Below, piece by piece: positions 27,660 through 50,350 of a stretch of 53,478 nt of DNA. Each line of letters begins with the position of its first letter. The first letter of the stretch is position 1. Origin of the DNA: a virus (Duplodnaviria > Caudoviricetes); the IMG/VR virus record IMGVR_UViG_3300020020_000038, positions 1 through 53,478 of that record; one strand, given 5' to 3'. The notes under the pieces were generated by a model. The model did no database searches. It was not told the DNA's origin and saw only the letters and a program-made list of their open reading frames with translations. A program made the position numbers and the translations under genes.

Positions 27660-28319
27660 GTGACGCGGCTCAGCCACTGGTATCACGTGTACGCCGACGG
27701 GAACTGGGCGCAGCCCGTCACCGAGCATTGCCAAGCCCTTTGCAAAGGCGGACTCCTCGACGCGCTGGAGGGATGGTTCGTCGGGTTCGTCGGCAGCGAC
27801 GACAACATCGCCGCAGCCAGGTGCACACTCGATGTACTAGCGCCCGGCTACACCGTCGTAGCCGCGGCGCCGGTTGGGTGGGAGCAGGAGACGTTGGAGC
27901 CGCTCTGGGCGTGGACTCAGGACCATGACGGATTGGTCAGTTACGGCCACACGAAAGGCTCGGCGCACCCGAACCCGATCAATGATCCGTGGCGGCGCTG
28001 CATGGAGTACCACTGTTTCGTTGAGTGGCGGCGACCGGTGGAGGCGTTGACGGAGGGCGGCGCGTCTATCGCCGGGTCGCATTGGATCAAGGGCGGACCG
28101 TCATCCGTGCCGGGCTACGGGACGGGAGGCATGTTCGGCGGGAACTTCTGGTGGACGAGAGCCGAGCTGCTCCGTCAGAACCCGGCACCGGACCGGACTT
28201 CGAGGATGCACGCCGAGCATTGGCTCGGGCAACTGTCGGAGGTGACGCCGTTGACCGACGCCACGGTGTGCGATTTGAATACGGCGAGCATCGGGCGAGG
28301 CTGCCCCGACTGGGTCTAG
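27660..28319 (+). CDS. Putative glycan-related enzyme (HTKG/GNFWW type)
   Basis: EQETL..LW, YGHTKG, WRRCM, FGGNFWW, AEHWLG; context of glycan genes. Confidence 0.5.
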   Translation: MTRLSHWYHVYADGNWAQPVTEHCQALCKGGLLDALEGWFVGFVGSDDNIAAARCTLDVLAPGYTVVAAAPVGWEQETLEPLWAWTQDHDGLVSYGHTKGSAHPNPINDPWRRCMEYHCFVEWRRPVEALTEGGASIAGSHWIKGGPSSVPGYGTGGMFGGNFWWTRAELLRQNPAPDRTSRMHAEHWLGQLSEVTPLTDATVCDLNTASIGRGCPDWV

Positions 28320-28621
28320 AGGTAGACGATGACGGTGTCGGAACCCTCTTCGGGCCAGACAGGCGTCGACAAGTCGAGGAACACCGGATGCCACGTGAGG
28401 TCCCACGAACCCAACTCGGCGGTGGGCAGCCAGCCGGACAGGTCGAGCGTCACGATACGCGCCTCGGGATCATCGATTTCCCCGGGCAGCACGACCGCCG
28501 CTCCGGTGGTGCAGTGCTTGCAGAGGCCGGTGACAGCGGACGCGGTGGCGAGCGTCAGGAGGCCGTGGAGTTGCCCGGTGAGCGAGTCGACCCCGGTGCG
28601 ATGCCGCCGCCACGTCGTCAT
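28316..28621 (-). CDS. Small BppU/Ig-like virion adaptor protein
   Basis: GSWDLTWHPVFLDLSTPVWPEEG pattern; last gene of fibre module B. Confidence 0.5.
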   Translation of the reverse strand: MTTWRRHRTGVDSLTGQLHGLLTLATASAVTGLCKHCTTGAAVVLPGEIDDPEARIVTLDLSGWLPTAELGSWDLTWHPVFLDLSTPVWPEEGSDTVIVYL

Positions 28622-30699
28622 ACCGTGGACGTCCTACGAACCCCGTCGACCCGGGACGTCAACCGTGCCATGTCGAGTCGGGTGGTCAACCGCACCCCAT
28701 CGATCCTAGTCGTGTAGCGCGGCCCGCCCGTGTAGATCGGCGCCGACGACGGAACGGTCGGCGTGACGACGTCGGTGATCCCGACCGGATCGACGAAGGC
28801 CCGCACGGCATCGTGGACGATTTCGATGGAGTCGACGAGACCGACGACATCAACGATGTTGGCTGCGCCGGCCCCGGCGATCTCGACCGAGTCGGTGATC
28901 CCGACCGGATCGACGGCGGAGACCGCCGACCCGACAGCGATCTCGACCGAGTCGGTGATCCCGACCGGATCGACGGCGGAGACCGCTTGGCTGAGGGACA
29001 CATCGACAGAGTCAGTGATCCCGAGAGCGTCGGCGACAGAGCGAGCGACCGACAGAGCGACGTCAACCGAGTCGGCGATGCCGATGACGTCGACGTGTGA
29101 GCGGACGATGACGGAGGCGGCGTCAACGGCGTCGGTGATCCCGATGTTGTCGGCTGGGTTGATCGCCCCTTCGCCGGAGGACTCGACCGTGACGGAATCG
29201 GTGATCCCCACCACGTCCGTTTGCGGGCGGACGATCGCACTGGCGGCATCGACTGTGTCGGTGATCCCGATCTCGTCGGTCTCTGCGACCACCTTGCTGA
29301 TTACGACCGCAGCGGAGTCGGTGATCCCCACCCCGTCGACCGCGGCCAGGGCGTTGCCGACGGTGAGCGTTGCCGTGTCGGTGACACCGATGTTGTCGAC
29401 GGCCGCTACGGCGTTACCGACCGCCACCGTCGTTGCGTCGGTGATCCCGACTGGGTCGACGACGTCGAAGGCATTACCGACGGCGAGCGTTGCCGTGTCC
29501 GTGATCCCGACGACATCGACCGGGGATTGGGTGAGGCTGAGTTGTAGCGTCGCCGTGTCCGTGATCCCGACATCGTCAGCGTCGGCATCGATCGTGACGG
29601 CAAGCGCCACGTCAACGTCTTCGGTGATCCCGACTGGATCGACTGCCGCGATGGCGTTCGCCACGACGAGCGCCACCGAGTCGGTGATGCCGACGTTGTC
29701 GGTGACCGCTTCGAGGAGCCCAAGCTCCGTTGTGATCGAATCGGTGATCCCGACGGTGTCGGTGACGGCGACGACGTTGTCGACGACGAGCGTCGCGGCA
29801 TCGGTGATGCCGATGTTGTCGACTGGGGTGAGGTCGGTGTCGCCGCCAGGAACGAACGTGGTCGCCGAGTCGGTGATCCCGACCGCTTCGGCGCGTTGTA
29901 GTTCGTAGTCCTCGGCGACACCCGAGTCGCCGATCCCGATGAGATCGACAGGGTTGACGCCCCGGCCGATGACGAGAGCCACCGAGTCCGTGATCCCGAC
30001 CTCATCGGTCTCGGAGACGGTGTGGGCGATAGCGGACGACGGATGGACAGCGAGCGTGAACGCCCGCCAAGCGAACGATACGTCGGTGCTGAACGCCCCG
30101 GCGTCCTCTGACGCTGCGTTGAGTTGTCGAGACGCTGCCGCAATCAAGCCACCGAGGTTTGTGCCTGCGGTACCGCAAGTCTTCTGGAGCGGCGGGCTCG
30201 GCGTGTAGTTGGCTGGCGAACCGGCGTTGGCCCATGTGTCATCGTCGGCTTCCTCGCCAGCCGATCCGAAGAAGGTGATCCATAGGTAGTCCTTGGCACC
30301 ACCGGTCGGGGTGCAAGTCGTGGCGTTGGGAGCAGTCGAGGTGCCGGTCGCCAACGTCGACAGTTGCGGAGCCTGGGTTGCCGGGTCCTCAGCACCCGAA
30401 ATCTGATATGTAATCGTGGCGTCACGGACAGCCACCGTTGACGTGAACGTGACCGTCGCGCCTTCCGCCCCATTGGACACGCGATACCACACGGCCATGC
30501 CGCTCGGGACGGCCTCATCGAGAAGTTCGGTCCATCCGGCGAGCGTGTTGAACGATGCAGTCGACGCTGGGGTGCCCTTGTCCAACAGGACGAGAATCAG
30601 GTTCCCCGAGACGAGACTCGCGGGCAAGCTGACGACGTGGGACGTATTCGCGGTGGCTGTCGCCGACTCGTTGGTCGTAACGACGACGGGGAAGGCCAC
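28618..30699 (-). CDS. Structural repeat protein: beta-rich N-domain plus ~21 D-x-V-G-I-T-D repeats
   Basis: Repeats counted in the translation, period mostly 20 aa; near-identical 60-bp DNA units around 28880-28990. Confidence 0.85.
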   Translation of the reverse strand: MAFPVVVTTNESATATANTSHVVSLPASLVSGNLILVLLDKGTPASTASFNTLAGWTELLDEAVPSGMAVWYRVSNGAEGATVTFTSTVAVRDATITYQISGAEDPATQAPQLSTLATGTSTAPNATTCTPTGGAKDYLWITFFGSAGEEADDDTWANAGSPANYTPSPPLQKTCGTAGTNLGGLIAAASRQLNAASEDAGAFSTDVSFAWRAFTLAVHPSSAIAHTVSETDEVGITDSVALVIGRGVNPVDLIGIGDSGVAEDYELQRAEAVGITDSATTFVPGGDTDLTPVDNIGITDAATLVVDNVVAVTDTVGITDSITTELGLLEAVTDNVGITDSVALVVANAIAAVDPVGITEDVDVALAVTIDADADDVGITDTATLQLSLTQSPVDVVGITDTATLAVGNAFDVVDPVGITDATTVAVGNAVAAVDNIGVTDTATLTVGNALAAVDGVGITDSAAVVISKVVAETDEIGITDTVDAASAIVRPQTDVVGITDSVTVESSGEGAINPADNIGITDAVDAASVIVRSHVDVIGIADSVDVALSVARSVADALGITDSVDVSLSQAVSAVDPVGITDSVEIAVGSAVSAVDPVGITDSVEIAGAGAANIVDVVGLVDSIEIVHDAVRAFVDPVGITDVVTPTVPSSAPIYTGGPRYTTRIDGVRLTTRLDMARLTSRVDGVRRTSTV

Positions 30700-30700
30700 G

Positions 30701-31486
30701 TCAGATCACCCTCGTGATGGCGAGACGCACACGCGGCGGCGGCACCACCACATCGGCCGCATCAGTGATCCCGACGTTGTCGACCGGATTGACTTCCTCC
30801 GCATCGCCCGCGCCAGCGGCGACCTCGATGGCAACACCTGCAAACGAGAACACCGCCACCGACGCGCCGGCCCTGATGTCATTCCACAGCACCGAGGCAG
30901 AGGTTGACCCGGTGCGTTGCTGGAACTGTGCGCCACCAAAGAACGACGCTGACGAGTCGACCTGGGCGTCCTCAGTCCAGCCGGTCCCACCGTCGATGTC
31001 GTTGAGTCCGGCGTCCGTGTCCACCACACAACCGGCCAGGACGACACTCGACGCCGCCGGAGCCCCGGACAACGTGATCGTCTTAGCCCCGTCAGTCGTG
31101 TTATCGGCGAGACCGATGACGGCATCGATCGGGTCACCAGTGTCGAATCCGGTCACCTCGTACACGGCATAGAACATGCCGTAGGTCGACGATGCCCCCG
31201 TGCCGATCGTGATCGTCGTAGACCCGCCCACTGCGACCGCTGTGAATGACTCGCCGGACGCCTTATCGGAGACACCTTGGTAGGCGGATGCTTGCGTGGC
31301 GAACGTGTGTGACGGCGCGGCACAGGTCAACGCACCCGCCGCGGAGCTACCCATGATCGCCATCAACTGGACGACAATCAAACTGCCCGCCGTGAAAGAG
31401 ATTGCACCCAACGCCTCCGACGCAGCGACAGGCGACGTCGCCAGGTCTGCCGAGCCGGACGCCTTGAGTGTCGCTACGACGGCCAT
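30701..31486 (-). CDS. Beta-rich virion accessory protein with one terminal VGITD repeat
   Basis: A/G/S/T-rich; ends NPVDNVGITDAADVVVPPPRVRLAITRVI. Confidence 0.7.
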   Translation of the reverse strand: MAVVATLKASGSADLATSPVAASEALGAISFTAGSLIVVQLMAIMGSSAAGALTCAAPSHTFATQASAYQGVSDKASGESFTAVAVGGSTTITIGTGASSTYGMFYAVYEVTGFDTGDPIDAVIGLADNTTDGAKTITLSGAPAASSVVLAGCVVDTDAGLNDIDGGTGWTEDAQVDSSASFFGGAQFQQRTGSTSASVLWNDIRAGASVAVFSFAGVAIEVAAGAGDAEEVNPVDNVGITDAADVVVPPPRVRLAITRVI

Positions 31487-31487
31487 G

Positions 31488-32825
31488 TCATGCAGCCTCT
31501 ACCACAAGCACCCAGTCGCCGTCACCGGCAGCGTTCGTCCCGAGCGACCCGAACGATTGCGAACCGGTCGTAGCGAACACCCCGAGAGACGTCGCGGCCA
31601 GGTTGACGGGGTCGACCTTGAACACTTCACAGTTGGTCGGGGCAAGCATGCCGACGTTGAGACCGACAGTGGCCGCTCCACCACTGGGCCGGTAGACGAC
31701 AGCGAGCGTCCCGCTGGTGGCAGCGGTGTCAACTCGGGCACCGATCAACAGGCCACCCGACCCACGCCCCGTGGTGACGAACGTAGACCCCAACGGCAGC
31801 ATCGTGGACCAGCGGGTGCCGAGACCGATGATGAATTGGGCGAACATCTCCAGCTTCAATGAGCCGGGCGAATCCAGATTCGATTCCCACGTCCCGGTCC
31901 ACGCGATCCCCCACGAGGCGTCCTCGAAATGCCAGATCGGGTTGTTCCCGAACAGGACGTAGCAAGCACCACCGACGAACGGCCCCCACATCTGCGACCG
32001 CAGATACGGCTCGTCACCGTATTGATCCTCATGATCAAAGTCGGCTTCGTAGTGCCCCTCGAAGAACCCGACCGGAATCGCCGACGCCGCGTACGCCGTC
32101 TCGGTGTCGGCAGCCGGAGTGTTGCCGTAGTCGTAGATGGTGTCGAGGTCGAACGTGATCCCCGGATAGAACGTCGAACCGAGCGAGCCGCTGAGACCAC
32201 CCGGAGCAACCAGGAAACCACTGTTGGCTCGTAGCGCCGTAGCGACGTTCGCTTGGCGATCCTCCAAGGTGGCGTCGGGGTCGAAGTCGTGCCCGATCAG
32301 CCAGATCAGGTTGGGGCGATCGGCGTACCGTTGGGCGAGCGACGTCGCATAGGTGGACACCTGCCCGTTGGTCGCCGCCGCCAGCTCGGTCCGCCAACCG
32401 TCGCCGAGGTTGAACCCGAGGTACGTCATACACACGATGACCGTGAACCCCAGGCGTTCCATCTCATCGAAGATGAAGTCGATGTGTTCCCAGTACGGCT
32501 CGTTCAACGACGACTGGTACGCGGTCCCAGTGAACGGCAGGTCACCGTTGACGTTGCGTTCGGGCGGGGTCTGGTTGGAGAACCCGCCCTCGGGAGCGTT
32601 GAACAGACTGAGGTTGAAACCCTTCGCCGCCCGATCCTCCAGGTAGGTCGTTACCTCGGCGGCGGTGAGTTGCACCCCGAGCGACCACGCCGTGTCAGCG
32701 ACACCAAACCAGGGTTGTCCGTTCTGATCGACAAGGTAGGTGCCGTCACCCGAAACCGCCGTGGCGAACGGCAACCCAGTCTCGATGAACCTCAGATGGT
32801 GATCTGTGCGGACGGTCACGGCCAC
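31488..32825 (-). CDS. DUF4038/apiosidase-like glycoside hydrolase
   Basis: VSGDGTYLVDQNGQPWF..DTAW, YLEDRAAKGFN, RYADRPNLIW..G.D, EGHYE, DWVLV. Confidence 0.75.
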   Translation of the reverse strand: MAVTVRTDHHLRFIETGLPFATAVSGDGTYLVDQNGQPWFGVADTAWSLGVQLTAAEVTTYLEDRAAKGFNLSLFNAPEGGFSNQTPPERNVNGDLPFTGTAYQSSLNEPYWEHIDFIFDEMERLGFTVIVCMTYLGFNLGDGWRTELAAATNGQVSTYATSLAQRYADRPNLIWLIGHDFDPDATLEDRQANVATALRANSGFLVAPGGLSGSLGSTFYPGITFDLDTIYDYGNTPAADTETAYAASAIPVGFFEGHYEADFDHEDQYGDEPYLRSQMWGPFVGGACYVLFGNNPIWHFEDASWGIAWTGTWESNLDSPGSLKLEMFAQFIIGLGTRWSTMLPLGSTFVTTGRGSGGLLIGARVDTAATSGTLAVVYRPSGGAATVGLNVGMLAPTNCEVFKVDPVNLAATSLGVFATTGSQSFGSLGTNAAGDGDWVLVVEAA

Positions 32826-32837
32826 AACCGTGACCCC

Positions 32838-33419
32838 CTATGCGCCTAGAAGATCATGACTCCACGTGATCGCCAGAGTGTCGCTCGCACCCTTGTCGAC
32901 GGCGCTGAACACGACACGGGAGATTGTGTCGGCCGCCGCACCTGCGCCCGTGCCGATCGGGGTGAGATTCGTGATCACAGCCTCCGTGATCGCCGAGTTT
33001 GTCGCCGTGCCAGCCGCCCACGTCGTCTTCCACTGGATGCGTCGAGACGAACCGTTCAACGCCGAGGTGGGGAACCCGCCGTCGATCGCCACGTTCGAGC
33101 CAGAGATGTGCGCAACGATCGCCGCGCCGGCACCGGTCTTGGCCGCCGCGGTCGTGCTGGTGCCGAGCCGCATCCCGGTCACCTGGTCAGGCGGCGAAGC
33201 GATGCCGGCGGCCCGTTCGCCGTAGTACTCGTCGCCGACCTGGGTGACCAGGTTCCGGATAAGTTCCAGGCTGATGATTTCGAGACCGGCAGCCTTACGG
33301 CGGGGACGGAGCAACGCCACTTCGACGAGGCCGGCGATCCCGACCGAGTCGTCGTGGCCACGGGCACGGTCGAGCGTCAAAACGACCTCGTCGCGGATAC
33401 CACTGGGATCAACGTTCAC
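32838..33419 (-). CDS. Putative fibre/filament structural subunit
   Basis: NLVT.VG, MRLGT, AITEAVI.N, SRVVFSAVDKGASDTLAITW; AGGAGG RBS. Confidence 0.65.
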   Translation of the reverse strand: MNVDPSGIRDEVVLTLDRARGHDDSVGIAGLVEVALLRPRRKAAGLEIISLELIRNLVTQVGDEYYGERAAGIASPPDQVTGMRLGTSTTAAAKTGAGAAIVAHISGSNVAIDGGFPTSALNGSSRRIQWKTTWAAGTATNSAITEAVITNLTPIGTGAGAAADTISRVVFSAVDKGASDTLAITWSHDLLGA

Positions 33420-33428
33420 TGGGGCCTC

Positions 33429-33905
33429 CTACTTGATGCCGACGTTGGCGAGCTTGCCGGGTTCGGTGACGAGCGTCCCGGTCGAGTCGGTGCGGGTGAC
33501 GAACGACGACGTGAGTCCGACCGTCGACCAGCCGAGATAGGCGACCATGGCGAACGCCCACGTGATCGCCGCCGAAATGAACGCTGACCACGAGATGACC
33601 GCGCCGCCACCATCAACGAGATGCACGTTCACGAGCCCGGCGACACCGGACAGGACGATGGTGACCAGTTGTTTCACCCAGCTCGCCCAGAGCAGTTTGG
33701 TGAGGAGACCGGTGACCAGCGGGATGACGACACCGAGAATGACCGAGACGACATACGGCGGGAGGGCGAACGCCCCGTCGACTTGTACGGCGTCCGGGCC
33801 GACCGGGGTCGGTTCCTCCAGGCCGGAAGCGAGCACCGCAGCGGGCAACATCACCGCCCCGACGAACACGAGAGCAGCAGTGAGGATGCGACCGAGACGG
33901 CTCAT
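33429..33905 (-). CDS. Holin-like membrane protein (lysis cassette B)
   Basis: Several TM segments, GVVIPLVTGLLTK; TACGAT-N8-ATG leaderless start. Confidence 0.7.
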   Translation of the reverse strand: MSRLGRILTAALVFVGAVMLPAAVLASGLEEPTPVGPDAVQVDGAFALPPYVVSVILGVVIPLVTGLLTKLLWASWVKQLVTIVLSGVAGLVNVHLVDGGGAVISWSAFISAAITWAFAMVAYLGWSTVGLTSSFVTRTDSTGTLVTEPGKLANVGIK

Positions 33906-33949: not shown

Positions 33950-34483
33950 TCAGGGTGCCCGCTCGATCAGGATGAACGCGAGCGAGGACAGCCCGACGAG
34001 TACGGCGACGGCCCAACCGATGATCTGGCGGGACTTGTCGAGTCCGGCCGCGGTGCCAGTGGTGAGGTCGAGCCGCGAGTTGACCGTGTCGAGCCGCGAG
34101 TTGACGACGGCGATGGCATCGGTGCGGGCGGCGACCCCGGCGTCGACCTTGGCGTTCATCGCTTGGAGCCCGGCGTCGACCTTGGCCTCCAACGCCTGGA
34201 ACCCTGTCTCGACCCGGCCTTCCATCGACTTGAAGCGGGCCTCGATCTCGTCACGGGGCATCGTCTTAGCGATGATGTCAGCTTGCTGACCACGGAACTC
34301 GTTGACGCTGTCGAGACGAGCCTGGATCGTCTCATTCTTCTCGCTGAGCGCTGTGTTCTGGGCGTCGAACCGCTGATCCAGGCGCAGGTCGAGGTCGATG
34401 AACCGCTGCTCGAAGTGGGCACGCAGCGTGTCAACAGTCCAGCCGGACGGATCTTTCTCCGTCTCACCGCCACCGATCGCCAC
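33950..34483 (-). CDS. Coiled-coil protein with C-terminal TM anchor (lysis cassette B)
   Basis: NEFRGQ motif, internal AKVDAG and VNSRLD repeats, hydrophobic tail, GGAGGAG RBS. Confidence 0.7.
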   Translation of the reverse strand: MAIGGGETEKDPSGWTVDTLRAHFEQRFIDLDLRLDQRFDAQNTALSEKNETIQARLDSVNEFRGQQADIIAKTMPRDEIEARFKSMEGRVETGFQALEAKVDAGLQAMNAKVDAGVAARTDAIAVVNSRLDTVNSRLDLTTGTAAGLDKSRQIIGWAVAVLVGLSSLAFILIERAP

Positions 34484-34564
34484 CTTCGCTCCTCCCACGA
34501 GCCTAATGCTAGTAGTGATAAGGATCGTAGACGGGCGTACCTCCAGCGTGTCGCCGCGTACCGG

Positions 34565-35572
34565 TCAGTTGACCTGAACACCCAGCCGAGCAATGCCGGC
34601 ATCGGACACGTTGGTGACATCATCGGCACTGTTGACCGACTTCTTCGACGCCAAATCTATGAGCTGATCGGCCGCATTCCCCGACAGTCCACGCCGGAAC
34701 GTCCCCATCGAAATCTGCTGGTTGATGTCATTCGTGTCGGCGAGCTGCCGGCGGGCGAGTCCGTTACCGATGAAGAACTTGCCGTCCTTGGTCTTGGCGA
34801 TGAACATGCCTTCTCCTTCCGACCCGGCCAACGCGAGGACCGGATTCGGGTCGATGGGTCCGAGCCACGCCTGTTGAATTTGGATGGCCCTCGGGATGAT
34901 GAGGTTGCGGACCTGGACCTTTTTGCGGTCACCGGGGCAGGATTTGCCGGGGTGAATCGTGGTGAACGGGTAAGTATCCGGGTCGGTGTGGGATGCAACC
35001 CCGGTATCCCACCACTCGGTCACCATCACGAGAGGGAAGCCATGCACAAGCGATTCGTAGGCGACGATCGCCGCGATCGTTTCGATCTGGCCCTCATCGA
35101 AGAACGAGCCCGTCGGATACGGGTCGGCGATGGAGCCACGATCGGCGGTCTCGATGGCGAGAGACCACCACTGGACGTCGCCACGTTCACGGATCTCGGC
35201 CTGTTGAGCGTCGGTCAACGAATCCCACCGGTCGGACCCGGGCCGGACCGTCTTGTTGGCAATCCCCTTCTGCGACGAGTCCAACATCTTCCGGGCGCGA
35301 GTCACCCCGTCATGGGTGCGGTCGACCTGATAGTGCGGGAGGGTGTTCACACCCGGGTTGCCGTGCGTGTGGTTCCACGCCGACTCGATCGACCCCTCCC
35401 GCTGCGCCGCATTCGTGTGGATGAAGATGGAGCGGGCGATCCCGTCATCGGCCAGCGTGGAAGGCTCGCCGGGGAGGTCGGGCCGGGAGTCGGCGAAGGT
35501 GACGAACTTGACTTCGACACCGTCAGGGGCATGCGCCGAGTCGATGACGGCCGGGCGTGGGGGGAAGGCCAC
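34565..35572 (-). CDS. Endolysin, amidase_2-like N-acetylmuramoyl-L-alanine amidase (B)
   Basis: IFIHTNAA, PHYQVD, SLAIETAD, ASH, KSCPG. Confidence 0.8.
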   Translation of the reverse strand: MAFPPRPAVIDSAHAPDGVEVKFVTFADSRPDLPGEPSTLADDGIARSIFIHTNAAQREGSIESAWNHTHGNPGVNTLPHYQVDRTHDGVTRARKMLDSSQKGIANKTVRPGSDRWDSLTDAQQAEIRERGDVQWWSLAIETADRGSIADPYPTGSFFDEGQIETIAAIVAYESLVHGFPLVMVTEWWDTGVASHTDPDTYPFTTIHPGKSCPGDRKKVQVRNLIIPRAIQIQQAWLGPIDPNPVLALAGSEGEGMFIAKTKDGKFFIGNGLARRQLADTNDINQQISMGTFRRGLSGNAADQLIDLASKKSVNSADDVTNVSDAGIARLGVQVN

Positions 35573-41054: not shown

Positions 41055-41064
41055 GACACACTCC

Positions 41065-42315: not shown

Positions 42316-42318
42316 GGC

Positions 42319-42810: not shown

Positions 42811-42822
42811 TTCAGTGGCCTT

Positions 42823-43596
42823 TCATCGAGCGAACGTCGCTGCCAGTCGAGGACGGGCAAGCGATATCACAGGGCGGCGACGAGGCGGATTATCGACAGC
42901 GGCACCTACACCGCGTAGCCGGACGAACGCGACCGGGCCGCATTGCGACACGGCGGTAGTCATGGCGAACGCCGGAGCGACCGTCGCCGACCCCGACGAC
43001 ACCGTCGCGTCGAACGTGACAAGGTTGCCGTCGAACCCGACACCGGACGGAGTCGTCTCCGTCAACCGTGCATTCGTCGCCCCGAACGTGATACCGCCAG
43101 CGGTGATCGCCGGTGCCGTGATCGTCAACACATTGTCAGTGTCAATCGACACGGCGGCCAACAACAGGTCACCCGGCTCAAACGTGAGTGAAGTGGTCGA
43201 GGTGGCCGCCCTGTTCGCGGCGTGGCTGGCGTCGTCGCCGAACCCGACAGCGATATCCCACGTCTCGCTAGCGCCCTTCTCGTAGATGACGATCACACCG
43301 ATCGCACCGTTCGGTGAACCGGCCTGATCAAACGTCACGACACCCGACTCGCCACCCGCCAATATCTTCGTGTCAATCCCGATACGACAGGTGTGGTTGT
43401 CAGCTGTCGACCCGGTCCCCCCCGCAAGATCCGCTTGGTCCACCCACCCGCCCTCGGCGGTCAGGGTGGCGGTGGATAGCCAGACGTTGCGGACACATAT
43501 CGCCAGGCGGGCCGCCGTGGTCCCGGCCGGGTAGGACGGACCGACAGTTGTGGTGCCGGTGGCTTTCGTGCCGGAGATGATGTGGGTGACAGTCAC
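42823..43596 (-). CDS. Beta-rich virion accessory protein
   Basis: T/G/A-rich with an Arg/Pro-rich tail, like 30701..31486. Confidence 0.65.
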   Translation of the reverse strand: MTVTHIISGTKATGTTTVGPSYPAGTTAARLAICVRNVWLSTATLTAEGGWVDQADLAGGTGSTADNHTCRIGIDTKILAGGESGVVTFDQAGSPNGAIGVIVIYEKGASETWDIAVGFGDDASHAANRAATSTTSLTFEPGDLLLAAVSIDTDNVLTITAPAITAGGITFGATNARLTETTPSGVGFDGNLVTFDATVSSGSATVAPAFAMTTAVSQCGPVAFVRLRGVGAAVDNPPRRRPVISLARPRLAATFAR

Positions 43597-43599
43597 CGA

Positions 43600-44076
43600 T
43601 CAGAGGCTGTCCCTCATGACCCCGTTGGCATGCCACACGATAGTGAACGTCCCGTCAGTTACCGAGTTGGTGCCACCGAAGTAGTTGTAGCAGAACCCTT
43701 GGTCGGCGACAGGGGTGGTGATCGTGTCGTCATACACGAGGCAACCGAACACGAGCAGCAACGTGGCGCTCGAGCCGGACGCAGTGTTCGCGGCCCGCAA
43801 CGACACGAAATCGGCGACAGTGACGTCAATGGTTCGGGACGCCAGGTTGACGCCACCGGTCGCCCATTCGGCACCGTCAAACACTTCGTTACCAGCGGAC
43901 ACCCACTGACCGGCAGCGAACGCCGAGTTAGCTGCCGTCACATCGTTGTCAGGGGTGATGTCGTTGTCAAACAAGGCGGCCTTGACGGAGGCATCAGTGA
44001 CCCAGTCCATCGCCGTGGTGTTGTCAAAGATGTCGGCTTTCCACTGACGGAACTGCTTCGAGTTAGACCAGGCCAT
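43600..44076 (-). CDS. Putative fibre/filament structural subunit
   Basis: D..KAALF, NEV...W.TGG..L, LVYDDT, FGG..SVT.GTFTI.W pattern of small phage structural proteins. Confidence 0.65.
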   Translation of the reverse strand: MAWSNSKQFRQWKADIFDNTTAMDWVTDASVKAALFDNDITPDNDVTAANSAFAAGQWVSAGNEVFDGAEWATGGVNLASRTIDVTVADFVSLRAANTASGSSATLLLVFGCLVYDDTITTPVADQGFCYNYFGGTNSVTDGTFTIVWHANGVMRDSL

Positions 44077-44348
44077 CAGCTCTCCTCTGCTTTCAACGCC
44101 GCCACAGCGGCCTTCACGGCACGCTCAGCGGCGACGATCATCTTCTGTGTCTCCCGAGCCTTCGCCACGTAGATCGCTGCGACCGCCGCAGCCTTGGCCT
44201 CCGCCCGCGCCTTACCCTCCACAAGCTCCTCGAGGACACGTTGGGTTTGGGCGACGTCGGCACGTAACCGGTTGACACGACGCGCCGCGTTCTCCACGGC
44301 GACGGTGGCGTCCAATGCGGCGGCTTTCGCCCCTGCTGACTCAGGCAT
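44076..44348 (-). CDS. Coiled-coil hypothetical protein
   Basis: Ala-rich helix; TGATG coupling. Confidence 0.6.
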   Translation of the reverse strand: MPESAGAKAAALDATVAVENAARRVNRLRADVAQTQRVLEELVEGKARAEAKAAAVAAIYVAKARETQKMIVAAERAVKAAVAALKAEES

Positions 44349-44653
44349 CAATCACTCCTTGCTGTAGCACACGGCGCATAGACGGTGCAGTCCTGCCCGT
44401 CGTCACGGGTCGTCACGACAGACATCACCGGGCGGCCTTCGCCGTCGGTGGTGACGTTGTCGCCGTTGACGTAGTCGTCGCGGTCCCGGGCCTCGATTTT
44501 GCATTTCGTGCCGGCCGGGACCATCGGCACCGTCAACCCTCGCATCCCGGCACAGATATGCATCCGGCTATGTGGCAGCGGCTCAAAGGTGACGTCGGTC
44601 CGGTTGCAGTTCGGGCATTCCCACCGCTGCTCCGGGCGGATTACCGGAACCAC
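44348..44653 (-). CDS. Cys-containing phage hypothetical protein
   Basis: WECPNC..H.C.G..GL..PMV..RDDY..RDDG.DC.V.AP. Confidence 0.65.
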   Translation of the reverse strand: MVPVIRPEQRWECPNCNRTDVTFEPLPHSRMHICAGMRGLTVPMVPAGTKCKIEARDRDDYVNGDNVTTDGEGRPVMSVVTTRDDGQDCTVYAPCATARSD

Positions 44654-44961
44654 CAGATGCCTTGCGAATCAATCCACGAGTAACCGGCCGAACAGTACGC
44701 TTTCGACGCACCCGACGCCGCACCCGTAGACGATTCGTTGTTCGTCCGGACCGGCCCGTACTTGGTTTGCACCGCACCAGCCCAGTTACGACACCACAAC
44801 TTCACCTGAAACGCGATGTTGCCACCAGCCGAGTTCGCACAGCGGACAGACGCGGCGTTAGACCAGACAATCTCCGGGCAGTTCGTGACAGCCTGTACGT
44901 TGCCGAACGGGAGCAGAGCGAGAAGAGCGGTGAACGCGGCGAGACCTGCTAGCCGTCTCAT
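44641..44961 (-). CDS. Small secreted 4-Cys protein
   Basis: Signal peptide MRRLAGLAAFTALLALLPFGNVQA; ATGA overlap. Confidence 0.65.
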   Translation of the reverse strand: MRRLAGLAAFTALLALLPFGNVQAVTNCPEIVWSNAASVRCANSAGGNIAFQVKLWCRNWAGAVQTKYGPVRTNNESSTGAASGASKAYCSAGYSWIDSQGIWWFR

Positions 44962-45101
44962 GTCTGCCGGATCAGATGCTGGGCTCTTCCCTCGAGCACA
45001 CCGCGGGCCGCCTCCTGGTCGAGGACCTTGAAGATGACGACGATCACAACGATGACGACGAGCAGGAGAATGAGCAGCTCGATAGCCCGTTGGACGCTCA
45101 T
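44958..45101 (-). CDS. Small single-TM protein
   Basis: LLILLLVVIVVIVVIF. Confidence 0.6.
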   Translation of the reverse strand: MSVQRAIELLILLLVVIVVIVVIFKVLDQEAARGVLEGRAQHLIRQT

Positions 45102-45277
45102 GGCTGGTTCGGTGTCTGGTAGACGCCACTCAAAGTGACGAAGACAGCGACGGCAACGCCGACCCATTCAACGGCGGTCACCTCAACAGGGCCATCACCG
45201 AGCGGGTTCAACGCCACTTGAAGAGCGGTGAGCCCGGCCAGCAACGCGCCGACGACCGCCTTGAGATACGTGGACAT
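45098..45277 (-). CDS. Holin-like 2-TM protein (lysis cassette A)
   Basis: YLKAVVGALLAGL..DG..TAVEW..GVYQTPN; AAGGAG RBS. Confidence 0.7.
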   Translation of the reverse strand: MSTYLKAVVGALLAGLTALQVALNPLGDGPVEVTAVEWVGVAVAVFVTLSGVYQTPNQP

Positions 45278-45302: not shown

Positions 45303-45890
45303 TTACGGGGTGGGATTGCTGTTAGCGAAGATGAACCCGAGGACCGCGACACCGGCGAACAGCAAGGTGGCGCCGAGTCCGATGATGGCGTAGACACCGG
45401 TCTTGGATTCTTCGCCACCGGTCTTCGCCGCGTTGATCGCGATGACGGCGGCTTGGATGTCGGAGACGATCTGTTTCAGGTCGTCGTACCGGGTGGTCTG
45501 CGCAGCGATCGCCGTGCCGAACGTGTCCCGCAAACCCTTCAACTGCTCCGCAAAGTTGTTCTCAGTCTTCGTGTTCGCGAGGGCAGCTGCCTCGGTTTGT
45601 TGCACCACCGACTTCTCAGCCGCAGCCAGAGCGGCGTCTACGGCTTTGGAGGTGTCGGCTTTCTGTTCGAGGCGTTGCCGTTCCGATGTCTGCTCCGAAA
45701 CGAGTAGCCGTTCCTTGATCGAGTTGAACCGTTCATCGGTCACCGCCGCCAACCCGTCCATTTCCACAGCGAAGATGTCGGTGAGTTCTTTGCGGAGGGC
45801 GTCGACTGCACGGGAGGTGAGGACGGTCGGGTCAGGGATTGGACGCGACCCCGGCCCGTGTTGCGTTTCGGGTTCGGTTTCAGTAGCCAT
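45303..45890 (-). CDS. Coiled-coil protein with C-terminal TM anchor (lysis cassette A)
   Basis: PDPTVLT, KAVDAALAAAEK, hydrophobic tail; start could extend to 45992. Confidence 0.7.
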   Translation of the reverse strand: MATETEPETQHGPGSRPIPDPTVLTSRAVDALRKELTDIFAVEMDGLAAVTDERFNSIKERLLVSEQTSERQRLEQKADTSKAVDAALAAAEKSVVQQTEAAALANTKTENNFAEQLKGLRDTFGTAIAAQTTRYDDLKQIVSDIQAAVIAINAAKTGGEESKTGVYAIIGLGATLLFAGVAVLGFIFANSNPTP

Positions 45891-45991
45891 CTCACCCCCA
45901 TCACTGCGGCGACGGCGTCTGGGCCGGGAAGGCGTGACCCGTTTTGCGATTTCATGGTTGCCCATCGCACCTCCCCAACCGGACAGAATCA

Positions 45992-46171
45992 TCAGTCGTC
46001 CCTTTCGCGAAGACTGGTGATGCAGAGCAGTGAGCCGACGATGCCGGCCACGATCGTGTTCGGGGCTGTAGCGGTAGTCCCCCAGAAGATGACGAGTCCG
46101 AGACCTACACAGAACCCGATGGTGCGTCGCTCACCGTCCGACAGTTCCCGAAGGCGACGACGGGGGCTCAC
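45992..46171 (-). CDS. Small 2-TM protein (59 aa)
   Basis: Hand-translated MSPRRRLRELSDGERRTIGFCVGLGLVIFWG..IVAGIVGSLLCITSLRERDD. Confidence 0.55.
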   Translation of the reverse strand: MSPRRRLRELSDGERRTIGFCVGLGLVIFWGTTATAPNTIVAGIVGSLLCITSLRERDD

Positions 46172-46247: not shown

Positions 46248-47093
46248 TCAGCCGGTGTCTTTGCGTTGCAATAGTTCGTTCAGCTTCAACGCCGCCGCCT
46301 GGTCGTACTCGTCCGAGCCTGTGAGTTCGAACAAGAATGCCTTGAACAAGGCTTGTTGGAACCATTCCGACGCCGCCCCCGAGTTGAACTGGTCGACCGG
46401 TGGCGCCGACGTAACCGAGGCGAGAGTTTTGGAACTAACCAGCATGTCATCATCTCCAGAAGGCGGCGGGATTGGCGGGGGTTGGAGTGTTGACCCGGCA
46501 GCGGCAACGAGGCTGCGTAACGCAGCCACATCCCATGTGCCGGCACCGAGTGTCGGGTAGCCGTCAGCGGGCCCGAACGGATCAGACTTGCGGGTACCCG
46601 CCCAGCCTCGGTGGGTGGTGACGTCACGCATCGGATCGAGGCGAAGGCGGCGACACAACATGTTCATCAGGCGCAGGTAGGCGTCCATCTGTGGCCGCGG
46701 CCAACGTTCACCGACACCATTCGAGGCGGCTTCGATGGCGAACGCCATACGGTTACCCATCGAGGACGGGTCGAGCGGGATGACACCTTTCGATGTCGAC
46801 CACGGGGCGATGCCTTTGCCGTTCGTGTTTGAGGCGCCGGCTGTCCCGATGGTGACGACACCGGCCCGATCCAAGTGGACGTTGCCGATCGGTTTCGTCG
46901 TCGCGTTCTGCCACATGTAGGCGCAGTCGTTCTGCCATGTCGCATTGCTGGCCGTGTGATGGGCGACGATGCCCCACACTTGGTCGAATCCACCAGACGA
47001 CCGGGCCCGGGTCTCCCAGCCTGGATACTCACGGAACGCGATGCCCTCGGTGCGCAGCCAGTCGTCGAGATCGCGTAGCCAGATGGAACCCAT
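46248..47093 (-). CDS. Endolysin, amidase_2-like N-acetylmuramoyl-L-alanine amidase (A)
   Basis: GWETR, GIVAHHTAS, FAIEA, W...QMDAY, H..WA..RKSDP. Confidence 0.88.
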   Translation of the reverse strand: MGSIWLRDLDDWLRTEGIAFREYPGWETRARSSGGFDQVWGIVAHHTASNATWQNDCAYMWQNATTKPIGNVHLDRAGVVTIGTAGASNTNGKGIAPWSTSKGVIPLDPSSMGNRMAFAIEAASNGVGERWPRPQMDAYLRLMNMLCRRLRLDPMRDVTTHRGWAGTRKSDPFGPADGYPTLGAGTWDVAALRSLVAAAGSTLQPPPIPPPSGDDDMLVSSKTLASVTSAPPVDQFNSGAASEWFQQALFKAFLFELTGSDEYDQAAALKLNELLQRKDTG

Positions 47094-47211: not shown

Positions 47212-47361
47212 GTGCCACGACCACCCGAAGGCGAACGAATCTGCATCCGCCTCAAGCCTGAGACGATCGCCGTCATCGACAAGTGGGCCGCCGAAGAGGG
47301 CTTCAGTCGGGCCGGGATGATCCGCCAAATACTGGAAGACCTTGAAGAGGGCCGCCGATGA
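47212..47361 (+). CDS. Ribbon-helix-helix (CopG-like) regulator
   Basis: RICIRLKPETIAVIDKWAAEEGFSRAGMIRQIL; TATGAT-N6-GTG leaderless start. Confidence 0.8.
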   Translation: MPRPPEGERICIRLKPETIAVIDKWAAEEGFSRAGMIRQILEDLEEGRR

Positions 47362-48617
47362 CGATCTCTCGCCGTCAGTTACTCGCCGGTGCCGGCAGCG
47401 CCGCCACCTACCTAACCCTCAACCACCCCACACTCGGAGCCCTGGACGCACACGCCCTCGCCCCACAACCACCACCATCCAACACCTTCGAAGCACAAGA
47501 CTGGGCGACCGCCACCATCGTCCTCGAAAACCGGACCGGTTACGCCGACGGCTTACTACCCATCCAACTCGCCGACGGCACACTGTTTGCCACTCTCACC
47601 GTCAACGACACCGGCGAAGGAACCGGCGACGGAACCCACACCGTCACCCTCCACTCCGTCGACGGCGGAGAAACCTGGGAACGAACCGGCGTCATCGAAC
47701 CCCCCGAAGCCCCCGAAGCTGCGTGGGGCACCCCGTGGCTTCACCCTTCGGGCCGCATCTACGTCTTCTACACCTATAACGCAGCCAACCTGCGCTCCAT
47801 CCCCAACAACGACGGCACCTACGGCAACCAGAGGGTCGACAGTGTTGGTGTCATCGCCTACCGGTCATCGCTGGACGGCGGCTACACATGGGGGGCACGC
47901 CGCCACATCCACATCCCTGTCACAGCGATCGATCTACGTAACCCGTTCAAAGGCACCCACTGCATCTTCTGGATGGGTCCCGGCGTCCCCATCCCCAACG
48001 GCCTCGACGCCTACATCGGCATCTCCAAAGTCGGTGCCGTACATGGCGGCGTCATGTCCAACGACACCGAAGGCTTCGTCGTCAAGTTCACCGAAACCGA
48101 ACCCGGCCACATCACCGCCACATTCTCCACCGCCATCAAATGTGGACAACCGAACACCGAAGAACCCAGCCCAATCATCTTCGACGACGGAGTCATCAAC
48201 TGCACCTACCGATCCGTCATCGGCCGCCTCGGCGAAGCCTGGTCCACCAACGGCGGCGTCACATGGACCGTCGACTGGGCCAAGGATCGCACCGGCGCAA
48301 TCATCGCCCAACCAAGGGCCGGTGCTCAACAGGTCCGTCTCCCGGACGGCCGGTTCATCGTCTGGCATCACAACAACAGTTCCGACCCGGCGACCCTCGC
48401 ATCACACTTCGGGCCACGAAATCCGGTCTTCTACAGGATCGGCGAACGGGTCGGGAACCGCATCGTGTGGGGAGCTCCCAAACTGTTGTTGTGGGACCAA
48501 GATCCGAAGACAAACATCTCTGGTCCAAGTTTCCTGTTCGACGGTGACGTGATGACTGTCGTCGCCACCGACAAGTTGACGGCCCGCCTACTCCGTTTCC
48601 CGCTCGCCGGCCTCTAA
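47358..48617 (+). CDS. Tat-exported sialidase-like (BNR/Asp-box) beta-propeller protein
   Basis: SRRQLL Tat motif; Asp boxes SVDGGETW, SLDGGYTW and STNGGVTW; EEP and PRNP motifs. Confidence 0.8.
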   Translation: MTISRRQLLAGAGSAATYLTLNHPTLGALDAHALAPQPPPSNTFEAQDWATATIVLENRTGYADGLLPIQLADGTLFATLTVNDTGEGTGDGTHTVTLHSVDGGETWERTGVIEPPEAPEAAWGTPWLHPSGRIYVFYTYNAANLRSIPNNDGTYGNQRVDSVGVIAYRSSLDGGYTWGARRHIHIPVTAIDLRNPFKGTHCIFWMGPGVPIPNGLDAYIGISKVGAVHGGVMSNDTEGFVVKFTETEPGHITATFSTAIKCGQPNTEEPSPIIFDDGVINCTYRSVIGRLGEAWSTNGGVTWTVDWAKDRTGAIIAQPRAGAQQVRLPDGRFIVWHHNNSSDPATLASHFGPRNPVFYRIGERVGNRIVWGAPKLLLWDQDPKTNISGPSFLFDGDVMTVVATDKLTARLLRFPLAGL

Positions 48618-49090
48618 GTCGGGTAGACCAGTTCCACGTCGAAGAATCCGGTAAAGGTGACGGTAACCGAACCCGCCTGTAACGCCCTGATCGACAATGT
48701 GTCTGACGTCCCGTTCATCAGGATTAGCGGACTCACACCGAACACCCCTGAACTGACCGACGACGGCTCAATGTCGAAGCCATGAAGGTCCGTCGAGTTG
48801 CGGCGTACAACCACGTTGAAACGGGTGGCGGCGGTATCGGTGGAGGCGGACCCCCTGACTCCGACCCGGTACCAGCCGGTGATGTTCGGAGTGATAACGG
48901 TCGGTGTTCCACCTGCGAACCAGCCGCGAGGGTCGAGAACCTCTGTCTCCCACGAGACCGTGATAATCGAACCACTGACCAGCGAGTTACCAGTTGACGT
49001 TGACACCTGGCAGACAGCGTTGACAGGCCGAGTCACTGCGTTCAGATTGGTGGCGGTCACGATCTCGAGGGAGGCAAACGGCCAAGCCAT
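48614..49090 (-). CDS. Minor tail/receptor-binding-like protein (C1q/TNF-like beta domain)
   Basis: VTATNLN leader, W.TE..D..G, ITPNITGWY.V. Confidence 0.6.
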   Translation of the reverse strand: MAWPFASLEIVTATNLNAVTRPVNAVCQVSTSTGNSLVSGSIITVSWETEVLDPRGWFAGGTPTVITPNITGWYRVGVRGSASTDTAATRFNVVVRRNSTDLHGFDIEPSSVSSGVFGVSPLILMNGTSDTLSIRALQAGSVTVTFTGFFDVELVYPT

Positions 49091-49102
49091 AAGTGGGGCT
49101 CC

Positions 49103-50350
49103 TTAGAAGGCTAGACGGTTGGAGTCGAGGACACCGAACACGGCGTCATCCAACGTCAGGAAGGCACGGGTGTCTGCATTGGCAAACGACAACTCGGCAG
49201 TCCAAGAACCGTGAGCGATGTTGTGGTGGATGCCGTCGACAATCGACAACTTGACGATTCCAGAACCGACGTTCAACGGTGCCCGTTCCACACTGACCAC
49301 ATCGGTCAGATCCAACGACACCACCGTCTGTACTTCGGGCTGTGTCAACGCCGCCACGTTGACCGTCGCCGATTCGAACCGGACCTCCGGTGTGGAGAAC
49401 CGGTCCAGGTGCAAATCGAGAATGTCTTGGGTCTCTACATCGTCGACAGTGAACAGCTGCCCCAAAGACAGGGTACGAATCATGAACTTGTCGATTGCCG
49501 CCAAGTCGACGGCCTCGAGCGGGACACCTGTCGTTTCTGATTCGCCGAGCACACGGGTATACAACAGGTCTGCCGCGGATCGTTGACTGGCATTGCGGTA
49601 AGGGACGCCTGCTGTCCGGTCGTCAGAGAACACGACGTCAGCAGAAGCGTTGAGGGTGGCGGTCCGGTTGCGGAACATCAATGTTCCGTCAGCGGCTATG
49701 TACAGGTAGCCGGCTTCGGAACGTGAACAGGCTTGGAGGTAGGCGAGGACGTTGCCACCCAACGTGGTCGCCCCGAACGTCGAGTTGCCGTCATCGATCA
49801 ACCGGGAGAAATGTTCCACTTCGGGACGGTCCAACACTCGGATGATTCGTTCCCCGGACAGGTCACCGGAGAACGCCGGGGCAATCTCGGGGAGTTCCTG
49901 GTTGGCGAGGATGGCGAACCCGTCAACACAGGTAGCGGTGACACGGGACAGGTTGTCGCCCGGTTCATAGGTGACAGCCCAGTCCTCGACCCAGCCGGTG
50001 AACAGGTCGAGGCCTTGCCAGCGGATCGCGACCCGTTTGATCGGAACAATTTCGCCGTCGTATGGGGAACCGCTATAGGACGGGTCGAAGGTGCGGTCGT
50101 TGTCGTTGAGTACGACGGTGGCGACCCCTGGGTTGTATTCGTCGCGTTCGTGGTCCCGGCCCCGCTTGGTCGTGATCGCCGCGACGTGTTCCGTGACGTC
50201 GACGAACACGTCATCGGGGGCAAGCAGGTAGGTGACGTTGTTGAGTTCGCCGCGGTCGGGGTGGTCGAGTACGAAGAAGTTGCCGCCGACGGCGTCAACC
50301 CCGAACCCGATTTCGACGGTGACACCGGCGAGGTTGGTGGCGACAGTCAT
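49103..50350 (-). CDS. Minor tail (hub/tip) protein, block A
   Basis: FVLD..G.L, RGR..E..PG.A..L.DNDR.FDP, SEAGYLYI..DG.L.FR, terminal FLTLDD..GVLDSN.L. Confidence 0.75.
   Translation of the reverse strand: MTVATNLAGVTVEIGFGVDAVGGNFFVLDHPDRGELNNVTYLLAPDDVFVDVTEHVAAITTKRGRDHERDEYNPGVATVVLNDNDRTFDPSYSGSPYDGEIVPIKRVAIRWQGLDLFTGWVEDWAVTYEPGDNLSRVTATCVDGFAILANQELPEIAPAFSGDLSGERIIRVLDRPEVEHFSRLIDDGNSTFGATTLGGNVLAYLQACSRSEAGYLYIAADGTLMFRNRTATLNASADVVFSDDRTAGVPYRNASQRSAADLLYTRVLGESETTGVPLEAVDLAAIDKFMIRTLSLGQLFTVDDVETQDILDLHLDRFSTPEVRFESATVNVAALTQPEVQTVVSLDLTDVVSVERAPLNVGSGIVKLSIVDGIHHNIAHGSWTAELSFANADTRAFLTLDDAVFGVLDSNRLAF

Follow-up and report, generated by a model that had tools for sequence, protein, structure and literature searches.

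Two parallel tail-tip, lysis and fibre blocks in a soil phage contig meet within a shared tailspike segment and probably come from two phages

The viral record IMGVR_UViG_3300020020_000038 (Duplodnaviria; Caudoviricetes), from soil metagenomes, is a linear contig of 53,478 bp with ~65% GC, and the whole record is the window analyzed here. Its late operon, on the minus strand, extends from 53478 to 28316 and holds two blocks of tail-tip, lysis and fibre genes, block A (50350-40773) and block B (37303-28316). The tip of kit A is a 415-amino acid (aa) tail hub and the tip of kit B is a 356-aa minor tail protein. The gene for a 617-aa tailspike (38919-40772) is the sole link between the blocks. 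The contig is probably a chimera of two phages, each with a single kit, that share a recently exchanged tailspike body. The initial annotation had described the two parallel blocks, and the elements that it named were found on the minus strand where, or close to where, it had placed them. It had read the contig as a recombinant or a chimeric assembly, or else as a nested prophage remnant. The chimera is favoured here, and the recombinant is opposed by a repeat at the join, a second assembly, codon composition and the mutual exclusivity of the tip families. Late-operon genes below are on the minus strand unless marked otherwise.

The join between the two blocks

Logan unitigs were taken from two runs (X1 and X2) of one sample containing the contig. 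The X1 unitig covering 38851-40631 had a depth of 7.42 compared to 4.1-6.1 for the other listed X1 unitigs, and the X2 unitig covering 39352-40626 had a depth of 9.16 compared to 4.5-5.8 for the other listed X2 unitigs. These values place the segment at ~1.5-2x the unitig depth of its flanks, where unitig depths are not copy numbers. The X1 unitig extends left of 38851 into a 55-nucleotide (nt) arm that is unmatched in the window, and no position in the window matches a 30-nt loose-end consensus at ≤3 mismatches. The unitigs end at 40631 (X1) and 40626 (X2), with unitig ends at both borders of the segment, and the two runs differ at 40103 (T/G). The segment is 1.78 kb long and spans the tailspike gene from codon 48 to the stop plus 68 nt; its contexts differ in the first 47 codons and in the gene downstream. 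In the source metagenome, 38851-40631 thus has the behaviour of a repeat. It occurs only once in the contig yet is repeat-like, and it is therefore common to other DNA in the sample. Its first 30 nt had 0 matches in metagenome contigs and 0 in viral contigs. A check of coverage and of spanning reads at the junction, which the initial annotation had called for, gave a divided result: coverage crosses the junction without a drop, and nothing visible in the unitigs bridges the 1.78-kb repeat from unique A to unique B sequence.

Two assembly sources were distinguished by their treatment of GTG starts, which the first writes as V and the second as M. The second assembly, possibly of the same reads, has a 75,198-bp contig with the block B proteins of 83, 356, 335, 193, 445, 261 and 101 aa and the holin, together with early-region proteins of 219 aa (at 8871) and 309 aa (at 193). 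Its 25,237-bp contig has the block A proteins of 257 aa and 101 aa. The six ATG-start block A proteins that were looked up and the 93-aa protein at the end of block A occurred on no contig longer than 53,478 bp. The exact 617-aa protein was present in one source only, and none of its 14 matches was near-identical (best, 53% identity). Since block B up to the 83-aa protein lies on the 75,198-bp contig and block A is separate, the second assembly breaks between 38845 and 40773, which is the tailspike gene. The join lies within a repeat of the assembly graph and was not reproduced by the second assembly.

Codon composition also steps at this point. The G+C content at third codon positions (GC3) was 0.736 ± 0.027 for A genes (n = 12), 0.796 ± 0.047 for B genes (n = 13) and 0.806 ± 0.036 for early genes (n = 23), a step of 0.06-0.07 at the join. 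The tailspike GC3 of 0.814 is like that of the B and early genes. Like-for-like comparisons of A with B gave 0.74 versus 0.81 for the lysins, 0.73 versus 0.84 for the coiled-coil/transmembrane (TM) proteins and 0.69 versus 0.80 for the repeat proteins. Homologues of the window genes at 17684-18709 and 21943-23574 were found in 14 of 19 loci with a 356-type gene and in none of the loci with a 415-type hub. Complete records with a 356-type gene are 65-76 kb long, and the 75,198-bp contig of the second assembly fits as a genome of its own. Because of the GC3 step, the restriction of these homologues to 356-type loci and the sizes of 356-type records, block B and the early region are one coherent lineage, and the tape measure, hub and block A are another.

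One explanation for the four arms of the segment and its ~2x flank depth is that a single genome carries two copies of the 1.78-kb tailspike body and that the assembler skipped the intervening loop. Blocks A and B would then belong to the same phage without being neighbours, and the break in the second assembly at this point would be expected. We consider this very unlikely. A direct repeat of 1.78 kb with no mismatch would not be stable in a phage genome, neither the GC3 step nor the A/B lineage split is explained, and the T/G difference at 40103 between runs suits two populations better.

Depth was dropped as a discriminator between the blocks. Bin means in X1 and X2 were ~4.35 and 5.06 for block A compared to ~3.35 and 4.19 for block B, and the longest unitigs differ by only 10-15%; the A/B difference is small and within noise. 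Identical pieces were also listed for runs from two other studies, covering the B side and the shared segment in X3 (34361-35099, 37007-37464 and 39365-39942) and the A side in X4 (40740-43123, 46852-47084 and 50148-50515). This split by side was not used as evidence either, since X3 also weakly covers 40.3-42.3 kb, where loose ends lie at 40993 and 41313, and the uncovered parts are not countable.

Tail-tip lineages and the single-kit arrangement

The families of the 356-aa and 415-aa proteins are mutually exclusive in every other record fetched. The two were found together in 0 of 26 loci, and a 356-type ORF (open reading frame) was found in 0 of 80 hub-type loci. The result was the same for whole records: 0 of 17 hub-type records, 11 of them at least 90% complete, had a 356-type gene, and 0 of 17 356-type records, 4 of them 100% complete, had the hub. 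As positive controls, the hub profile found the window and the record of its closest relative (L030, below), and the 356 profile recovered all 5 of the carriers already known. A metagenome scan with the 356-family alignment gave 387 pattern matches, with 0 confirmed.

The 356-aa protein has 151 relatives at E ≤1e-3, and those listed are mostly stand-alone proteins of ~350-360 aa. In the 11 loci, out of 19 in IMG/VR, whose ORFs were mapped, a tape-measure-sized ORF and a gene for a 765-1407-aa protein precede the 356-type gene, and a ~230-aa gene follows it. The 765-1407-aa first minor tail proteins carry inserts of the carbohydrate-binding module (CBM)/fn3 type, and the tape measure was verified by PHROGs in 6 of 6 356-type loci scanned. 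A homologue of the 237-aa protein encoded next to the 356-aa gene in the window lies directly 3' of the 356-type gene in 12 of 19 loci (tblastn). The context in the window deviates. Upstream of the 356-aa gene are an HNH gene, a collar fibre, an 83-aa ORF and the tailspike; unlike the 356-type lineage, which has a tape measure and a large first minor tail protein there, the window shows no tape measure of that lineage.

Blocks A and B share the order of tail-tip gene, small protein, Amidase_2 lysin, coiled-coil protein with a C-terminal anchor, small membrane protein(s), fibre-type genes, 20-aa-repeat protein and small protein. The absence of obvious similarity between counterparts, noted by eye in the initial annotation, was borne out by alignment. 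All-versus-all BLASTP of 28 ORFs gave no cross-block counterpart similarity and no cross-block pair under E 0.06. With 200 shuffles as background, the 8 counterpart pairs other than the repeat proteins had Smith-Waterman z scores between -1.1 and 2.6, and two additional small-protein pairings scored 0.4 and 2.3. The repeat-protein pair had z = 4.6, which was put down to composition and periodicity and not counted as similarity.

The closest relative found, L030 (also L036), is an IMG/VR contig of 37,468 bp with a CheckV completeness of 41%. It has the same order of tip, small proteins, Amidase_2 lysin, 4-TM protein, small protein, glycoside hydrolase (GH), repeat protein and small protein, but only a single kit. 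Its hub (61% identity), 165-aa and 147-aa proteins and amidase C-terminus are A-like. Its amidase catalytic domain (35%), GH (27%) and the N-domain of its repeat protein (51%, in a 984-aa protein) are B-like. A 356-type gene is absent from the whole L030 record, and tblastx of the window against that record gave matches in the late region only, besides low-complexity noise. The A/B parallel exceeds chance because the single-kit L030 keeps the order with A-like and B-like genes mixed. Since L030 has one kit in this order, one kit per phage is therefore normal for the architecture. The late-region arrangement recurs three times (A, B and L030) with almost no sequence similarity between counterparts, whichever way the join is read.

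The two blocks could also form one long tail-tip region, with the first amidase as a virion-associated lysin and the 356-aa and 237-aa proteins as additional baseplate parts. Tail-associated lysins are known, and the hub and the 356-aa protein come from different families. We judge this less likely still than a collapsed repeat, since each amidase has its own C-terminal domain and its own coiled-coil/TM and small membrane proteins, each block is closed by its own repeat-protein module, and L030 shows the unit as a single kit. The repeat at the join, the second assembly and the GC3 step are not addressed by such a region.

Short-read viromes yield inter-genome chimeras at shared genes, and tailspike bodies are classically exchanged on conserved N-terminal anchors. 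The join in the window runs through an exact repeat that co-occurring relatives share and that is assumed to be longer than a typical short-read insert, and the second assembly disagrees with it and composition steps across it. The tailspike body is shared and its N-terminal codons differ, the second context being known only from the 55-nt arm. In the chimera that we favour, A and B would be the equivalent late regions of two distantly related actinophages in the same soil sample, each made up of a tail tip, a lysis cassette and a post-lysis fibre module. One phage (G_A) would have the tape measure, the gp27-like hub, kit A and the tailspike. The other (G_B) would have the tailspike, the 83-aa ORF, the collar fibre, the HNH gene, the 356-aa tip, kit B, the glycosyltransferase region and the replication genes. 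The identical tailspike body of G_A and G_B would be the mark of a recent exchange of a receptor-binding/depolymerase module onto different N-terminal anchors. A short-read assembler would have passed from G_A into G_B via the shared segment, giving a seamless, in-frame two-kit contig. A chimera would account jointly for the parallel order with unrelated sequence, the intact state of both blocks and the seamless in-frame junction. We infer which arms truly pair, and that the join arose in silico rather than in vivo.

Several points weigh against a chimera and for the alternative that the contig is right. It would then represent one phage of ~90-100 kb with both kits in tandem, a recombinant of G_A-like and G_B-like parents that crossed over in the tailspike body. 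The source assembler did join A and B. Depth is continuous over 31-51 kb and even over both blocks in the two runs, with A unitigs at ~4.1-6.1 and B unitigs at 4.5-4.7, which fits one genome or two equally abundant ones. All ORFs are intact, co-oriented and tightly packed with stop/start overlaps, and no gap separates the 617-aa gene from the stop of the 93-aa gene. The pieces of the second assembly and the segment add up to 75.2 + 1.8 + 25.2 kb, or ~102 kb, a possible phage genome, and the ~12 kb beyond the tape measure is about what the genes from terminase to tail need. The CheckV completeness of 59% for the window implies a genome of ~90 kb. L030, itself a mosaic of A-like and B-like genes, shows natural recombination between the two kinds, and an HNH gene lies at the border. 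The second assembly leaves the blocks unjoined and offers no alternative partner for either arm, and the placement of proteins on its contigs rests on how the 'contigs' and 'longest contig' fields of a look-up table are interpreted.

A real recombinant would look identical in the contig. One lineage would have supplied the half from head to kit A, and the other would have supplied kit B and the early genes. Expression of both lysis cassettes and both sets of fibres would be conceivable, and the 356/237 tip pair would have lost the partner that normally lies upstream of it. We hold this to be possible but doubtful. It needs the same shared segment and the same parents as the chimera plus one extra event, and the repeat would still have further arms in the sample. 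No amelioration is seen in the GC3 step. The two tip families occur together in none of the other records fetched (0 of 26 loci, 0 of 80 loci; whole records, 0 of 34), and the tape-measure-sized ORF and 765-1407-aa protein found upstream in the 11 relatives (of 19) whose ORFs were mapped are both missing here.

If the join is artefactual, as the chimera has it, catalogues should not list a 'dual-kit phage' as an oddity of host range, and the record needs a flag, as do inferences from it on host range or on completeness of the CheckV type. With a real join, the contig would be a rare snapshot of a phage with two complete tip, lysis and fibre kits. Such a recombinant would either assemble two kinds of tail tip, giving it two host ranges, or have been sampled soon after it captured a module and before decay of the redundant kit. 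In either case, the 1.78-kb tailspike body stands in two genomic contexts in one soil sample, which is direct evidence of recent exchange of a receptor-binding module.

Genes of the two kits

Block A follows the tape measure gene (50347-53478; PF10145, 1.5e-13; phrog_13339, 1.1e-85), whose 5' end is lost because the contig ends within it. The tape measure aligns to positions 144-459 of the phrog_13339 profile, which puts the missing part at ~140 aa. It is 30% identical to the tape measure of L030. The tape measure ORF ends at 50347 and the gene for the 415-aa hub (49103-50350) starts at 50350; the two genes adjoin in the same way in L001, L003-L007 and L030. The AlphaFold2 (AF2) model of the hub had a predicted local distance difference test score (pLDDT) of 88.7 and a predicted template modelling score (pTM) of 0.85. 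Foldseek searches of the Protein Data Bank (PDB) with this model gave 71 matches at E ≤1e-3, the best being 7b5h at 1.2e-15. The matches include 1k28_D (T4 gp27, 1.9e-13), 1wru (Mu gp44, 5.3e-13), 3cdd and 3gs9, together with the phage 80alpha baseplate entry 6v8i (6v8i_AE) and VgrG-type hubs. The modelled multi-domain fold identifies the 415-aa protein as a predicted tail hub of the gp27/Mu gp44 type. The hub family has 5459 representative relatives at E ≤1e-3.

The tip of block B (36233-37303) matches phrog_1887 (tail protein, 7.1e-17). The initial annotation had called it a hub; it is a minor tail protein that may or may not have a hub fold. Alignment of the 356 family (112 rows) to the hub family (114 rows) with hhalign gave E 0.011 over 281 collinear columns with a probability of 3.9%, and nine control comparisons gave E 0.098-0.63. 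A hidden Markov model cross-search between the families found nothing at E ≤0.1. One homologue of the 356-aa protein bears the annotation 'baseplate hub protein and central tail fiber'. There is thus a hint in the sequence profiles that the 356 and 415 families may share a hub fold. The ESM Atlas neighbours of the 356 family (DUF5047, DUF5048 and Sipho_Gp37) were rejected, as Pfam finds none of them in 37 members at E ≤1.

Each tip gene is followed by a small gene. In block A this encodes a 158-aa small tail protein (48614-49090) with no family match in Pfam, PHROGs or NCBIfam and 35% identity over 81 aa to the 165-aa ORF of L030 (E 1e-6). In block B it encodes the 237-aa partner of the 356-aa protein (35583-36296), whose start is uncertain (alternative, 36209). 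Block A is interrupted between the 158-aa gene and the lysin gene by a BNR/sialidase-like gene on the opposite strand (47358-48617, plus strand; PF13088, 4.2e-10). The N-terminus of its product is of the twin-arginine type (MTISRRQLLAGAGSAA), and the gene could be a moron or encode a secreted glycosidase.

The kit A endolysin (46248-47093; 281 aa) has an Amidase_2 domain and a C-terminal domain. It passes the gathering score of PF01510 (53.3 bits against a cut-off of 26, E 4.7e-14) and matches phrog_880 (endolysin, 3.8e-27); over its last 60 aa it is similar to the C-terminus of the amidase in L030 (37%, E 0.002).

The kit B endolysin (34565-35572; 335 aa) was assigned from its homologues, an AF2 model and Foldseek; it also has an uncharacterised C-terminal domain. 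The protein itself has no Pfam match at E ≤0.01, PF01510 included. Its family has 49 relatives at E ≤1e-3, and PF01510 was detected in 10 of 21 aligned members, with a best value of 7.7e-10. Among the same 21 sequences, PG_binding_1 was detected in 2 and LysM in 2, and H52, H195 and C212 are invariant; these three residues may be the zinc ligands. The AF2 model (pLDDT 85.5) has amidase and peptidoglycan recognition protein (PGRP) folds as its best listed Foldseek matches, which include AmiA, AmpD, amidase endolysins and PGRPs (4knk, 2y2b, 7f5i and 3hmb); the best E of 1.3e-3 is slightly above the threshold of 1e-3. The model and the conserved His/His/Cys set identify the 335-aa protein as a predicted lysin with a divergent Amidase_2 fold. 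Pfam detection is patchy across this lineage, and its C-terminal wall-binding domains are swapped (PG_binding_1, LysM and the uncharacterised one of the window). On either reading of the join, the window member of this Amidase_2 lineage escapes Pfam. Nothing credible came from sequence searches of the PDB with the 335-aa protein or with the profiles of its family and the 356 family, and single-protein locus scans for the 335-aa and 281-aa lysins gave zero confirmed loci. An hhalign comparison of the block B amidase profile with the block A amidase gave E 0.3; their HxT and AIE motifs line up, which was not counted as evidence.

Both lysin genes are followed by genes for small membrane proteins, assigned from hydropathy. 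In block A these are a 2-TM 59-aa ORF (45992-46171), a 220-aa coiled-coil protein with a C-terminal TM segment (45303-45965), a second 2-TM 59-aa ORF (45098-45277), a 1-TM 47-aa ORF (44958-45101) and a 106-aa protein with a signal peptide (44641-44961). The ORF at 45098-45277 shares a YLKAVV motif with an ORF of L027, where this homologue lies 3' of an amidase homologue. Two sources both call the 220-aa and 106-aa forms as genes. The initial annotation had named a block A holin, probably meaning the ORF at 44641-44961. Small membrane ORFs are indeed present beside the endolysin, and that particular ORF looks like a signal-peptide protein; from their hydropathy, the small ORFs at 45098-45277, 44958-45101 and 45992-46171 are better candidates for the holin. 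In block B, a 182-aa coiled-coil protein with a C-terminal TM segment (33950-34498; 33-bp tandem repeats in the coiled coil) and a 158-aa holin-like protein with four hydrophobic segments (4 TM; 33429-33905) follow the lysin. L030 has a 4-TM ORF at the equivalent place after its amidase.

The 220-aa and 182-aa coiled-coil proteins, one after each lysin, are mutually unrelated in sequence and have no annotated family; the 182-aa protein weakly matches phrog_6701 (1.7e-05), a family of unknown function. On either reading of the join, a tail-anchored coiled-coil protein without a described function follows both lysins. By position and topology, the two may represent an undescribed class of lysis accessory protein.

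Two reports describe actinophage lysis cassettes with several holin-like proteins, in which the endolysin is followed by one to three small membrane proteins, and in which holin-like proteins vary in topology and include coiled coils (PMC13056207, PMC9671378). The C-terminal anchor of the coiled-coil proteins in the window is the reverse of the topology given in one of them for LysF1b, which has a single N-terminal transmembrane domain (TMD) (PMC13056207). Unlike actinophage cassettes made up of lysin A, lysin B and a holin-like TMD protein, the window has two lysins that are both Amidase_2; no lysin B-type esterase family was found in Pfam, PHROG and NCBIfam scans of the window ORFs.

The post-lysis fibre module of kit A (40773-44653) encodes proteins of 101 aa (44348-44653), 91 aa (44076-44351; a coiled coil), 158 aa (43600-44076), 257 aa (42823-43596), 416 aa (41065-42315) and 93 aa (40773-41054), the last being the final block A gene before the tailspike. 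The 158-aa protein is 31% identical to the 147-aa ORF that precedes the GH gene in L030. The 416-aa protein is an Ala-rich repeat protein with 60-bp and 192-bp tandem repeats in its gene (Tandem Repeats Finder (TRF) periods 60 and 192 at 41374-42021).

The corresponding module of kit B (28316-33419) encodes proteins of 193 aa (32838-33419), 445 aa (31488-32825), 261 aa (30701-31486), 693 aa (28618-30699) and 101 aa (28316-28621), and a phrog_5417 match (6.1e-11) falls within it. The 445-aa protein is an apiosidase-like GH (PF13204, 1.8e-43). The gene for the 693-aa VGITD-repeat protein has 60-bp repeats that correspond to 20-aa units. One VGITD unit stands at the end of the 261-aa protein, and the 693-aa protein has ~25 such units after its N-domain; these two proteins are possibly paralogous.

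Junction genes, early region and related phages

The 617-aa protein matches PF12708 (1.6e-6; 28.5 bits against a cut-off of 27), and this family was also found in 7 of the 13 other matches of its homologue search. The beta-helix family match identifies it as a predicted tailspike/depolymerase with a pectate-lyase fold. Its residues 27-115 resemble the N-terminus of a 483-aa ORF that follows the hub in L030. Next comes an 83-aa ORF (38594-38845) with three EDPPGSGLY motifs, called as a gene in two sources, as 83 aa and as 90 aa; it begins exactly at the end of the shared tailspike segment. The collar-type fibre and the HNH gene that the initial annotation had placed near the junction are both there. 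The fibre (37764-38594; 276 aa) matches phrog_8469 (tail fibre, 2e-08) and the Collar-domain gp21 of Microbacterium phage Juicer. The HNH endonuclease gene (37303-37743; phrog_826, 6e-37) abuts the start of the 356-aa tail gene, and a single unitig bridges 36532-37959.

The HNH gene and the opposite-strand BNR gene within the region would fit a prophage or satellite remnant nested in the late operon. This is the least likely of the explanations considered, and the initial annotation's suggestion of a nested prophage remnant found no support. No integrase family was found among the PHROG matches of the 73 ORFs scanned, a transfer RNA (tRNA) scan of the window found none, and there are no flanking direct repeats of at least 25 nt except in-gene tandem repeats. 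Both blocks consist of intact, ordinary, tightly packed late genes.

The window shows no terminal repeat and no open frame over its joined ends in a circularity check. The same 73 ORFs gave no head genes among their PHROG matches. Megablast of 28000-50500 against 50,697 phage records gave zero matches, an NCBIfam search with 25 ORFs gave nothing meaningful, and promoter and terminator scans of the window found sites no commoner than in shuffles.

Two groups of known phages resemble parts of the window. Pontimonas phage phiPsal1 (MG835450.1) and 352 IMG/VR relatives of its gp19 have a ~400-aa protein, 33% identical to the window hub, directly after the tape measure, and then short fibre-like genes followed by a peptidoglycan hydrolase and a holin. 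They differ in their size of ~30-35 kb, their 46-52% GC, an M23 peptidase in place of Amidase_2 and the lack of a post-lysis repeat-protein module. The gp19 of phiPsal1 (L001, 395 aa) is annotated as 'putative tail fiber', whereas its homologue in the window has a predicted gp27-like hub fold. In Microbacterium phage Juicer, the C-terminal two thirds of gp20, the second minor tail protein, are 25-28% identical to the 356-aa protein of the window, and gp21 is a Collar-domain fibre like the 276-aa protein. The 356-type lineage (L008-L026) shares the downstream phrog_1366 or glycosyltransferase genes of the window in 14 of 19 loci. In this lineage a glycosyltransferase (phrog_7162, 14775) or phrog_1366 gene lies a few kb 3' of the tail-tip genes, and the same neighbourhood is seen in the window and in phiPsal1, whose record has glycosyltransferases beside the capsid gene.

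The region at 1-28 kb carries replication and modification genes, including two for ParB-like proteins and others for a helicase, RusA, a replication initiator, a Gam-like protein, a glycosyltransferase and a methyltransferase. The window has three HNH endonuclease genes (11650-12018, 21361-21894 and 37303-37743), each from another PHROG family. The ParB-like genes are in tandem at 2204-3381 and 1321-2472 on the minus strand (phrog_723 and phrog_8071). The C-terminal half of the protein from an adjoining ORF is queuine tRNA-ribosyltransferase-like (phrog_6059, 3.2e-31), and this ORF and the ParB-like pair may form a DNA-modification module.

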